Origin: Methanosarcinales archaeon
Lineage (GTDB): Archaea; Halobacteriota; Methanosarcinia; Methanosarcinales; Methanogasteraceae
Length of the DNA: 28,977 nucleotides
NCBI GenBank assembly: GCA_030640725.1
Contig: DAOWIV010000047.1
Location: 1 to 28,977, forward strand
Direction of reading: 5' to 3'
Shown piece after piece: positions 2,698 through 28,293 of this stretch (position 1 is its first letter; every line of letters starts with the position of its first letter). The notes beneath the pieces are model-generated. The model was not told the DNA's origin and did not search any database. It saw nothing but the letters and a program-made list of their open reading frames with translations. The position numbers and the translations under genes were made by a program.

Positions 2698-3609
2698 ATG
2701 AAAAAAGAGATATTGATTGTTGAAGACGAAAGAATCGTCGCCGAAGACGTTCGGATGATTCTGAAGAATTTTGGATATACGGTCTCTGCAATCGTGTCGT
2801 CAGGCGAGGAGGCCATCGCCCGGGCAGGGGCGGAACTGCCTGATCTGGTGCTGATGGACATCGTACTCAAAGGTGAGCTGGACGGGGTTGAGGCGGCTGA
2901 ACAGATACGGTCTGCCCTTCACATTCCGGTTGTATACCTGACCGCCTATGCAGACGGCGACACACTTAAGCGTGCAAGGGTGACCGCGCCTTATGGGTAC
3001 GTTGTCAAGCCGTTTGTCGACAAAGAACTCTGCTGTATCATAGAGATGGCTCTTTACAAGAGCCAGCGGGAAAAGAGGATGGAACAACTCGCTGCGATGA
3101 TGAGTACCATCCGGAACATCGACAAGATCACCACCGAAGAGAAAGACCCGGGGAGGCTGATCCGGAGGATCTGCGAAGGTTTTATCGAGACACGCGGCTA
3201 TCGCCACGCGTGGATCGCGCTCAACGACGAACCATACCTGCTTGCAGGCGCCGGAAAGTCAGGGGTGGGCAGGGAGTTCTCGCAGGTAGAGGAGCGCATG
3301 AGGCTCGGCGAGTTGCCTGATTGTGCCAGACAGGCGATCGGGCAATCCGAAGTTGTCACGGTTCGGAGTCCGTCTTCTGTCGGTGCATGTGCCGGCTGTC
3401 CGCTGCTAAAGCGGTGCGATGGTGGAGAAACGCTCACGGTCAGGCTGGAAGCGGGCGAAACGATCTGCGGGCTGTTATCTGTGGCACTCCCTCCAGATCT
3501 TGCTGCAGGTGGGGCAGAGTCGCCGCTGCTTACAGAGGTTGCCGGGGATATCGCATTTGCGCTAAACAGCATAAGACTGGAAGAGCTACGTAAGGGGAGA
3601 TGCGATTAA
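2698..3609 (+). CDS. Response regulator receiver domain fused to a GAF domain
   Basis: REC motifs ILIVEDE, LVLMDI, YLTAY and VVKPF, then a GAF-like region (RICEGFIETRGYRHAWI...GLLSVALP..EVAGDIAFAL). ATG 2698 preferred over the ORF-track TTG 2683. Confidence 0.85.
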   Translation: MKKEILIVEDERIVAEDVRMILKNFGYTVSAIVSSGEEAIARAGAELPDLVLMDIVLKGELDGVEAAEQIRSALHIPVVYLTAYADGDTLKRARVTAPYGYVVKPFVDKELCCIIEMALYKSQREKRMEQLAAMMSTIRNIDKITTEEKDPGRLIRRICEGFIETRGYRHAWIALNDEPYLLAGAGKSGVGREFSQVEERMRLGELPDCARQAIGQSEVVTVRSPSSVGACAGCPLLKRCDGGETLTVRLEAGETICGLLSVALPPDLAAGGAESPLLTEVAGDIAFALNSIRLEELRKGRCD

Positions 3610-26157: not shown

Positions 26158-27303
26158 ATGCTTCCCACAGACTTAATCGACCGCGCCCGCGCTGGCGAAT
26201 GCACAAAAGAGGATGCAGCGCTCCTTGCCACCGCACCGCTTCCAGAATTATTTCGGCTTGCTGACGAGCTACGCGCAGAAGCAGTCGGCGATACTGTAAC
26301 ATACATCCTCAACCGAAACATCAACTTCACGAGCCAGTGTATCGGAACATGCCGGTTCTGCGCATTCAGAGACCCGAGGGGCTACCGGATGGATATATCC
26401 GAGATTCTCGAGAAGGTGCGGGAGGCAGTCAGCACCGGCGCAACCGAGATCTGCATTCAGGGCGGGCTTCTCCCGGATATGCGACTGGATGGCTACTGCG
26501 AGATTCTTGAATCGATCAAATCCGAGTTTCCGGATATTCACCTGCATTCATACTCGCCGATGGAGGTTTACCATGCGTCACGAGACGGGGTGGGTGTCAA
26601 AGACGCGCTTGTTGCGCTGAAAGGTGCAGGGCTTGACACGATGCCGGGAACCGCAGCAGAGATCCTTGTGGACCGGGTGCGCAAAAGAATATGCCCGGGC
26701 AAGCTGAATACGGAAGACTGGGCAGGTGTCATCAGGACTGCGCACAATCTTGGCATCAGAACGACTGCAACGATCATGTACGGGCACATCGAGACGATGC
26801 AGGATCGAATCGACCACATCCTCCTGATACGGGATATCCAGAAGGCGACCCGTGGGTTCACAGAGTTTGTGCCGCTGCCGTTCATGCCGTACAACAACGA
26901 ACTCGGAAGCGAGATGCTCAAGAGCGGTAATTACGGCATCACTGGAATCGACGACCTGCGGATGCATGCGCTCGCACGAATCGTGCTCCACACCCACATC
27001 AAAAACATTCAGGCGAGCTGGGTGAAGCTCGGGACAAAACTCGCCCAGTACGCGCTCCATTGCGGCGCAAACGACCTCGGGGGGACACTCATGGAAGAGA
27101 AGATATCAAAATCAGCAGGGGCAACGTCAGGCGAATACATGTCGCCCGCGGAGTTTGAATGGATCATCGGAAAGGCGGGAAGGGTGCCGGCGGTGCGGGA
27201 TACGCTCTATTCACATCAGCAAACTTTTCACCAAACTTTTCACAAAAGTTTGATCAAAAACTGCCCTCCGGGCGGGGCAGCGACTTCAATTACTACGGAT
27301 TGA
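26158..27303 (+). CDS. cofH: FO synthase subunit CofH (radical SAM), with a repeat-derived C-terminal tail
   Basis: NRNINFTSQCIGTCRFCAF, EICIQGG, MPGTAAEIL, TATIMYGH, QASWVKLG, GANDLGGTLMEE and RDTLY. Confidence 0.93.
   Translation: MLPTDLIDRARAGECTKEDAALLATAPLPELFRLADELRAEAVGDTVTYILNRNINFTSQCIGTCRFCAFRDPRGYRMDISEILEKVREAVSTGATEICIQGGLLPDMRLDGYCEILESIKSEFPDIHLHSYSPMEVYHASRDGVGVKDALVALKGAGLDTMPGTAAEILVDRVRKRICPGKLNTEDWAGVIRTAHNLGIRTTATIMYGHIETMQDRIDHILLIRDIQKATRGFTEFVPLPFMPYNNELGSEMLKSGNYGITGIDDLRMHALARIVLHTHIKNIQASWVKLGTKLAQYALHCGANDLGGTLMEEKISKSAGATSGEYMSPAEFEWIIGKAGRVPAVRDTLYSHQQTFHQTFHKSLIKNCPPGGAATSITTD
27220..27277 (+). repeat. Two-hairpin repeat, copy A, with a 12-bp tandem duplication
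   Basis: CAAACTTTTCAC twice (27220, 27232). Stem CAAACTTTT-CAC-AAAAGTTTG, then ATCAAAAA and CTGCCC-TCC-GGGCGG. Confidence 0.85.
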
Positions 27304-27336
27304 TGAAGTGCGGGTCATTTCATACGGAGACTTCCG

Positions 27337-27870
27337 ATGGCTGAAAATCTACCTGTAAAAAACGACTCTCAGATCCTGCTTTACCAAACGGAAAGCGGTC
27401 AGACTAAAATAGAGGTCCTGCTCGAGGACGAGACTGTCTGGCTGACGCAGAAGTTGATGGCGGAGTTGTTCCAGACAACAAAGCAGAATATTAGCCTGCA
27501 TATCCAGAACATTTATGCGGAGGGTGAATTGACACCAGATTCAACCGTCAAGGAATACTTGACAGTTCAAAAAGAGGGAAGCAGACAAGTTTCCAGAGTG
27601 GTTGATTTTTATAATCTGGATATGATCATCTCTGTCGGTTATCGCGTAAAATCCCATGTTGCCACTCGATTCCGCCAATGGGCGACTCAGCGACTGCGGG
27701 AATATATTGTCGAGGGTTTTGTTCTTGATGATGAGCGGTTGAAAAACCCGGATCAGCCTTTTGATTATTTTGATGAACTTCTGCGCCGCATCCAGGACAT
27801 TCGCACGTCTGAACGACGGTTTTACCAGAAGATAACCGATATTTACGCCACAAGCATCGATTACGATCCA
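27337..27870 (+). pseudogene. Truncated RhuM-family (virulence RhuM) gene; the ORF reads on through repeats to 28176
   Basis: WLTQKLMAELF, YNLDMIISVGYRVKS, FRQWAT..LREY..GFVLDDERLK and IRTSERRFYQKITDIYATSIDYDP. Homology stops at aa 178, exactly where the repeat array begins. Confidence 0.85.
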
Positions 27871-28147
27871 CGATTTTTTCACAAAAAATCGAGTAAAAAC
27901 TGCCCTTCGGGCGGGGATGACGATATGCATCTTTACATAACGAAGGACGATATCTCTATAAAAAATCGAGCGAGAAATGCCTTTCGGATGGGAGTTACAG
28001 TTTTTGATCAAACTTTTGTGAAAAGTTTGCGAGTGAGAAATGCCCTTCGGGAGGGGGGTGGCAATATGCATCTTTACATACGAAGGACGATTTTTTCACA
28101 AAAAGTCGAGCGAGAAATGCCATTCAGGAGGGGGGTGATGATACACT
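27871..28147 (+). repeat. Degenerate tandem array of four two-hairpin units, with an inverted copy-A segment inside
   Basis: Units start at 27871, 27948, 28009 and 28088. Each has a 21-nt hairpin, an AG-purine-rich linker and TGCCYTTCGG-like sequence. ATATGCATCTTTACATA(A)CGAAGGA occurs at 27923 and 28065. Confidence 0.88.
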
Positions 28148-28293
28148 TAAGTGTGCACTGGAAAAGAACGCATTGAAGGAAGGAATAATGACTGATAAAT
28201 TCTTTGGAACACAACCAATACTGAGACAATGCACCCAATCGAGCAGACCCTGCAGAGAGATGGTCATGAATACCAAAGCAGAGGATCGATACA

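Follow-up and report, generated by a model that had tools for sequence, protein, structure and literature searches.

The window analysed here is a 28,977-nucleotide (nt) stretch of a Methanosarcinales archaeon (family Methanogasteraceae; GenBank assembly GCA_030640725.1, contig DAOWIV010000047.1, positions 1 to 28,977, forward strand), part of a 1.8-Mb metagenome-assembled genome (MAG; here G000). Between its cofH and mobB genes lie a truncated RhuM-family gene and, within 27232-28147, five related hairpin units. An earlier note, made from the sequence alone, described these units as a repeat family with compensatory stem changes and proposed that they serve an enzyme encoded elsewhere. Here, we report that the units belong to an abundant, modular repeat family whose insertions carry target duplications, and that they are probably copies of a non-autonomous mobile DNA family specific to the anaerobic methanotrophic (ANME) lineage ANME-2c / Candidatus (Ca.) Methanogaster.

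Hairpin units between cofH and mobB

All five units were found where the earlier note had placed them. In each, the palindrome leads into an A-rich linker and then a G-run hairpin of the CTGCCC-TTC-GGGCGG type, which is degenerate in units 2 and 4. The palindrome is 21 nt long and AT-rich, with a perfect 9-bp stem and a 3-nt loop (CAC), and occurs in four versions beginning CGATTTTTT (P1), CAAACTTTT (P2), AAAACTTTT (P3), and CAACCCTTT (P4). The small GC hairpin with its G-run forms a second module (G), and two optional tails (T1 and T2) complete the set.

Copy A (27232-27277, forward strand) is a short P2-type element, composed of a P2 palindrome (27232-27252, CAAACTTTT-CAC-AAAAGTTTG), the linker ATCAAAAA, the GC hairpin CTGCCC-TCC-GGGCGG, and GG. 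Directly 5' of it, within the cofH reading frame, the left arm and loop are duplicated as a 12-nt half-palindrome (CAAACTTTTCAC; 27220-27231, forward strand), a doublet also present 5' of 26 P2 copies elsewhere.

The other four units follow the RhuM fragment. Element 1 (27871-27947, forward strand) holds unit 1 (27871-27916), with an intact P1 palindrome (27871-27891, CGATTTTTT-CAC-AAAAAATCG) and a linker and GC hairpin (27892-27916), and ends in a T1' tail (27917-27947). The first part of element 2 (27948-27997, forward strand) holds unit 2 (27948-27994), whose P1 palindrome (27948-27968) has lost its left arm to decay and is followed by a linker and degenerate GC module (27969-27994). Nested in element 2 is an inverted P2 unit (27998-28058, reverse strand), which contains unit 3 (28009-28058): a reverse-complement linker (CAGTTTTTGAT, 27998-28008) precedes the copy A palindrome in opposite orientation, with loop GTG (28009-28029), and a forward linker and GC hairpin follow (28030-28058). 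Because the two P2 units and their conserved linker are oppositely oriented, 27232-27263 and 27998-28029 form a 32-nt perfect inverted repeat. A second T1' tail (28059-28087, forward strand; 89% identical to 27913-27939) closes element 2. Element 3 (28088-28160, forward strand) begins with unit 4 (28088-28135), in which a single A>G change places a G-T pair in the P1 palindrome (28088-28108) and the GC hairpin has been lost from the decayed linker and GC module (28109-28135); its T1-like tail, from about 28134, is common to single-unit orthologues. The two tail modules between units (29-31 nt; 27917-27947 and 28059-28087) are parts of elements; the earlier note had missed them, as it had the 12-nt doublet and the opposite orientation of unit 3 that underlies the inverted repeat. 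Judged by its sequence, the array consists of three P1 elements arranged head to tail, with an inverted P2 unit nested in the second; the order of its four units rests on the assembly, and the public assembler contigs inspected do not bridge 27870-28022.

The shared two-hairpin fold holds for the intact units, with single-strand fold z-scores of -2.3 to -4.6, and fails for units 2 (+0.5) and 4 (-0.5), which fold no better than shuffled sequences.

Copy number, module order, and distribution

That the units form a genuine repeat family is borne out by further copies, both genome-wide and lineage-wide. The 11-mer TTTTCACAAAA occurs 74 times in the 1.8-Mb genome (0.76 expected), and 72 of its 80 perfect 9+3+9 hairpins are family members (39 P1, two of them with a changed loop base, 29 P2, and 4 P3). 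Mapping of modules with blastn-short placed the family at about 59 loci in G000, some 24 of which lie within 150 nt of a contig end. An Rfam search of both strands at a permissive threshold returned no match.

Both G000 and about 110 loci from relatives keep one fixed order of modules: P1, G, zero to five inverted P2-G units, T1, and T2. The P1-G-[inverted P2-G] arrangement recurs in more than 60 loci. P2 units are 62 nt long, lie inverted inside or behind a canonical element, and are repeated in tandem at a 62-nt period, with as many as five identical units in an array. The canonical element, P1-G-T1-T2, is 111 nt long (e.g., C10:814-926), and its copies are 90 to 97% identical to one another. 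P1 itself is near-invariant, 149 of 155 copies being identical across genera.

Two further repeat structures were noted. At L079:4269-4670, a canonical element and 85 nt of flank are contained in a 199-nt tandem duplication; an apparent 24-nt target duplication at this locus is this tandem duplication of element plus flank and was rejected as such. G000 also carries a second, classical MITE (miniature inverted-repeat transposable element), with terminal inverted repeats GGCTCTTTG.../...CAGAGAGCC (C43:2825-3025, C98:~3130-3480, and C30:~1880-1900), for which the T1 module has served more than once as the target, at ATACTTTT, an 8-bp duplication resulting. Long "elements" of 314 to 435 nt, considered as autonomous forms, proved to be nested insertions of this second MITE.

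All 26 genomes of the window's Genome Taxonomy Database (GTDB) family, in four genera, carry the repeats by BLAST, and a covariance-model scan, which the earlier note had proposed for relatives, recovered the same 26. In the other families of the order, 1 of 34 genomes was positive by BLAST, with only weak covariance-model matches. An exact-pattern scan of species-representative genomes gave more than 110 stretches, nearly all in ANME-2c, Ca. Methanogaster, or cold-seep Methanosarcinales MAGs; viral contigs (IMG/VR) gave no exact pattern match. Several copies of the ANME-2c repeat were also seen on short contigs of the "Thermodesulfobacteriota" MAG089 (L062, JAYEME010000210.1) and of Ca. Methanolliviera GoM_oil (L044), which are probably mis-binned ANME-2c contigs.

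A sister family is present in genus g13, of another Methanosarcinales family, where 4 of 12 sampled genomes have 42 to 67 weak matches each; the genomes bearing it are 99% complete, one of them a single contig. Its 10-bp stems (CAAACTTTTT/AAAAAGTTTG, AAAACTTTTT/AAAAAGTTTT, CAAGCCTTTT/AAAAGGCTTG, and AAAACCTTTT/AAAAGGTTTT) are perfect, its loops vary, the linker ATCAAAAAC is kept, and its tandem arrays have a 110-nt period. In one such array (L265:1330-2330; G084:C2), every unit combines a CCGG-TGTAA-CCGG hairpin and the linker ATCAAAAAC with two AT-rich palindromes (beginning CAAGCCTTTT and AAAACTTTTT).

Chance similarity or an assembly artefact might be suspected, since the four-unit array is found in this MAG only and is the one that the public contigs fail to bridge. 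Summed DNA depth over the repeats in contigs of the public run was 100 to 400 times that of the flanks, which is uninformative on array order. Against such an origin stand the 26 independently assembled genomes with the family at orthologous positions, unit-specific substitutions, the related family in closed single-contig genomes, and counts about 100-fold above expectation; we regard it as extremely unlikely.

The compensatory stem changes claimed by the earlier note are real between subfamilies and in the palindrome stem. Versions P1 to P4 differ at five or six of nine positions, always with compensation. In an alignment of hand-chosen subfamily representatives (A1), both partners have changed in six of the nine pairs of this helix, with 99% of cells paired; none of 500 shuffles reached the observed score, and slid controls scored far lower. 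For the GC hairpin the signal is weak, with a single pair changed on both sides. The further claim that selection acts on structure rather than sequence does not stand, given near-invariance within subfamilies and decay without compensation in old orthologous copies (units 2 and 4 of the window; copy A in G008). In the orthologous copy A of G005, compensation is seen at one pair (T-A to C-G), and one further change stands uncompensated. The same covariation would be expected of a duplex site with dyad symmetry to which a dimer binds. The sequence comparison thus supports a requirement for self-complementarity in "master" sequences, and covariation alone does not show a single-stranded substrate.

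Insertion sites, target duplications, and candidate enzymes

The proposal that the units are substrates of a DNA-moving activity encoded elsewhere is supported by the comparison of filled and empty orthologous sites. The window itself holds an empty target: one copy of the 8-mer ATGAAAAA at 2698-2705 (forward strand), at the start codon of a response-regulator gene. At the orthologous L105:6631-6742, a canonical 111-nt element has ATGAAAAA on both sides. Two more filled/empty pairs are L054 and C80 (ATTAAAAAA / ATAAAAAA) and C7:3690-3802 and G006 (TTTTTAAT / TTTTAAT), and the element at C7:7672-7863 is missing from the orthologous site of G003 and G008. Canonical elements are flanked by a 7- to 9-bp duplicated target, AT[A/G/T]AAAAA. 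In 8 of 10 elements the left and right copies carry the same base at the variable third position, which points to target duplication and not to an element-borne core. Short palindrome-plus-G units have longer duplications, of roughly 17 to 43 bp, since diverged. One (L094, compared with C216) has a duplication of about 24 nt that includes a ribosome-binding site and ATG, and a P4 copy has one of 15 to 20 nt. In G009, a short P2-plus-G unit inside the 5' end of mobB (L186:2244-2380; empty in G012, L188) has an imperfect duplication of 43 nt on its flanks, in which the start codon and the first 12 or so codons recur.

One canonical element site of G000 is occupied in G003 and G008 by a 2.1-kb gene pair encoding an AAA_21/AAA_15 ATPase and a 185-amino-acid protein (L156:5300-6800; L169:1-1500 in G008; G003:C12:15209-17307), and G006 has neither. 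The pair looks like a defence module; as a candidate transposase, this extra segment was rejected.

Insertion has also shaped the genes beside the array. In most relatives (nine), cofH and mobB are separated by a full-length RhuM gene. The window retains a fragment (27337-27870, forward strand) that covers only the N-terminal 111 of 252 Pfam positions and breaks off exactly where unit 1 has its foot, and the same junction (GATCC-N-CGATT) truncates RhuM in five genomes (G000, G001, and three of another genus). In orthologues, the truncated gene is followed by one P1-G unit together with some 170 nt of other sequence; element 1 is the only unit at this site in G001 (L072), G024, G017, and G020. 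Four units, about 217 nt extra, occur only in the window, and a 95%-identical orthologue has one. The truncated allele (L171-L194) is about 93% identical between genera and the adjacent cofH about 81%, which suggests that the truncated-RhuM segment was recently exchanged between genera. G003 has a P1-G-T1' element within an otherwise full-length RhuM gene. Copy A stands in place of the native 3' end of cofH, the last 27 or so codons being element encoded, and cofH orthologues without it end in HQQQPGGVATR and a stop. A single ancestral P1 element that truncated RhuM has probably expanded in the window to three P1 elements and one inverted P2, and a separate P2 unit has replaced the cofH end.

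Under the mobile DNA reading, an enzyme encoded elsewhere would recognise the palindromes, as hairpins or as dyad-symmetric duplexes, and would insert the element where A/T-rich DNA carries staggered nicks. Arrays would gain units through insertions, head to tail or nested, or through unequal recombination in the GC module. Several points weigh against this reading. The family genomes are all fragmented MAGs, 56 to 94% complete, so that copy numbers and array structures are lower bounds taken from assemblies, and no autonomous partner or cognate enzyme was found in them. The end opposite P1 is heterogeneous, similarity to the consensus stopping at position 42, 46, 68, 75, or 121. Duplication length is not fixed (7 to 9 bp as against about 17, 24, and 43 bp in short units), which is unusual for a single DDE transposase. 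In the 111-nt element no terminal inverted repeats were convincing: its 5' end aligns with the reverse-complemented 3' end at 10 of 17 positions at best, centred on CAC. Finally, the near-invariance of P1 across genera could instead reflect selection for a host function.

The search for the enzyme covered several candidates. No P1...T2 pair enclosed an open reading frame (ORF) in about 200 loci of these incomplete genomes, and the conserved 125-nt block did not continue into an ORF. DDE_Tnp_1, TnpB, Cas1, and reverse transcriptase (RT) loci had no consistently adjacent modules; among these and the Y1_Tnp loci inspected, just two incidental adjacencies turned up. A multi-copy ORF on C110 had no Pfam match and is tentatively read, from its C-terminal sequence, as a decayed insertion sequence (IS) transposase gene.

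The earlier note's analogies to HUH enzymes of repetitive extragenic palindromic (REP) sequences, to IS200/IS605, and to integron attC sites did not hold up. If the family derived from REP sequences or bacterial interspersed mosaic elements (BIMEs) with their REP-associated tyrosine transposases (RAYTs), or from IS200/IS605 by way of palindrome-associated transposable elements (PATEs), its hairpins would be single-stranded substrates of a Y1 HUH transposase. The short, perfect, high-copy hairpins, their mosaic of alternating orientations, and their extragenic 3' locations would fit, as would Y1_Tnp genes in 21 of the 26 family genomes. G000 has such a gene on C280 (113 bits). Yet Y1_Tnp is equally common in repeat-free genomes of other families (27 of 34) and is multi-copy, where a cognate RAYT gene is usually single-copy, and none of 13 Y1 loci inspected had adjoining P, G, or T2 modules. 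The G000 protein is of the IS200 type (motif YIQNQ), and in Archaea only IS200-type Y1 proteins have been reported (Quentin et al. 2018, PMC6006769). The present insertions duplicate their targets, which HUH Y1 transposition does not do; an IS200/IS605 element goes in 3' of a fixed target of four or five nucleotides and leaves no duplication. REP palindromes have a conserved GTAG or CGTC tetranucleotide at the foot (PMC3733652); neither was found at the feet here, which are CGAT, CAAA, AAAA, or CAAC, GTAG occurring only inside T2 at a distance from every palindrome. Descent from either Y1 system is therefore very improbable. Upstream of this TnpA gene (L031, C280:896-1510; the only IS200-type one in the genome), an exact 24-nt T1-like stretch (TTTTCATTTACGAAAAAGTATATC) lies at a distance of 62 nt, which would fit a link to Y1 and may have arisen when the gene inserted into a T1 module, or may be a promoter-like motif common to both; downstream of the gene are three tandem repeats of 21 nt.

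A retroposed small structured RNA, copied by target-primed reverse transcription at A-runs in the manner of short interspersed nuclear elements, would account for a P1 junction that is constant and always against an A-run, for an opposite end that varies as 5' truncation would make it, for the lack of terminal inverted repeats, and for duplications of 7 to 43 nt. The reverse strand of the element ends in a hairpin and U-run, and all five family genomes tested have an RT gene. The one in G000 (L207, C279:541-2295), though, is an ordinary group II intron maturase-type RT (RVT_N, RVT_1, and GIIM) without an endonuclease domain; comparable single RT genes were seen in the other four. In canonical elements the duplications are consistently 8 bp and the T2 end is precise, and internal T5/T6 runs would stop archaeal transcription short of the P1 end. 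The family matches nothing in Rfam, and there is no evidence for a discrete transcript, the presence of repeats in RNA-library contigs of a public metatranscriptome being uninformative on transcription. Such an origin for the elements is hard to credit. Somewhat less improbable, though still unlikely, is that a mechanism new to archaea moves them, either target-primed reverse transcription of a hairpin RNA at A-runs or a hairpin-recognising integrase with flexible stagger. A mechanism of this kind would explain the same four features: the constant P1/A-run junction, the heterogeneous other end, the missing terminal inverted repeats, and the variable duplications.

Relation to the host and to known systems

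The position of the elements bears on a possible host function. In 21 of 29 cases (p = 0.024), P1 is the side turned towards the 3' end of a co-directional ORF, and for 14 of those 21 the stop codon is no more than 20 nt from P1 or overlapped by it; the P1 end is usually 0 to 20 nt past the stop codon. Both palindrome arms contain T6 runs, and T5 comes after the GC hairpin when the reverse strand is read. Going by these sequence features, it is plausible that the elements act as two-way transcription stops. Their T-runs and hairpins would make them tolerated in 3' regions and probably useful there as stops. The family might then be a host regulatory element (a terminator, mRNA 3'-end stabiliser, or binding site of a dimeric protein) spread or kept by selection and recombination. 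The place of P1 past stop codons, the T-runs, its identity across genera, the presence of the family in every genome of the GTDB family, and the perfect stems and variable loops of the sister family all speak for this. It does not explain presence or absence at orthologous sites of close relatives with duplicated targets, insertions within genes (into RhuM of G003, the 5' end of mobB of G009, and the 3' end of cofH), the decay of orthologous copies, or tandem arrays of up to five identical units. A host function would fit secondary co-option, not origin or spread, and we consider a host element an improbable source of the family.

Among known systems, REP, BIME, and REPIN (REP doublets forming hairpins) with RAYT share with the present family short palindromes in tens to hundreds of copies downstream of genes (PMC2817692, PMC3116915, PMC3733652), as well as mosaic clusters of alternating orientation with defined linkers and lineage-specific sequences with several palindrome subtypes. 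At least 72 perfect 21-nt palindromes in 1.8 Mb, mostly extragenic and in an alternating mosaic, fit this description. The present family differs in being archaeal, in its AT-rich and perfect stems (REP stems are GC rich and imperfect), in having no RAYT gene flanked by repeats, and in its target duplications. Pneumococcal BOX elements (boxA-boxB(n)-boxC) are likewise built from modules of three kinds whose order is fixed and of which the middle one varies in number, as in P1-G / (inverted P2-G)n / T1-T2. They too are intergenic, with strong predicted secondary structure, and for neither is the mobilising enzyme known; their sequence is unrelated and their host is of another domain.

Prokaryotic MITEs (PMC10969869, PMC11602168) are small, non-coding, and multi-copy, with insertion polymorphism, 7- to 9-bp target duplications, and occasional in-frame or gene-end insertions, all of which the present family shares. 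It differs from MITEs in its hairpin ends and in the variable duplication length of its short units; no clear terminal inverted repeats and, in the incomplete genomes searched, no related full-length IS were found. IS200/IS605 ends and PATEs resemble it in their recognisable subterminal hairpins, and IS200-type TnpA and TnpB genes are present in these genomes; none of either kind was bounded by the present hairpins among the loci inspected. Both ends of the element can form hairpins with CAC/GTG loops in opposite loop orientation, which, with the target duplications, does not match a PATE, in which the hairpins of both ends lie on one strand. Neither do the units match attC sites, which are imperfect hairpins with extrahelical bases that close a gene cassette at its 3' end, beside intI and attI, and whose recombination makes no target duplications. 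Here the stems are perfect and without bulges, and the units lack cassette ORFs and are dispersed over about 59 loci; intI was not searched for. The family works like bacterial BIME, BOX, and MITE elements and fails the defining tests of REP/RAYT, IS200/IS605, and attC. No paper with these sequences, or describing MITE- or REP-like repeats in ANME-2, was found in the literature searched, and as far as that literature shows the family is undescribed.

Repeats lie near contig ends at many loci, which helps to explain the fragmentation of ANME-2c genomes. Annotation is affected where gene ends have been rewritten, as in the cofH C terminus, the RhuM truncation, and the duplicated mobB start. The sister family, in a related genus with closed genomes, is likely a tractable system for a binding or mobilising protein and for terminator function. 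To our knowledge, REP/BIME-like mosaic hairpin repeats and RAYT enzymes have been treated as bacterial. In the ANME-2c methane oxidisers, which are biogeochemically important, a family of hairpin repeats is abundant and apparently active, and its insertion signature is a different one.

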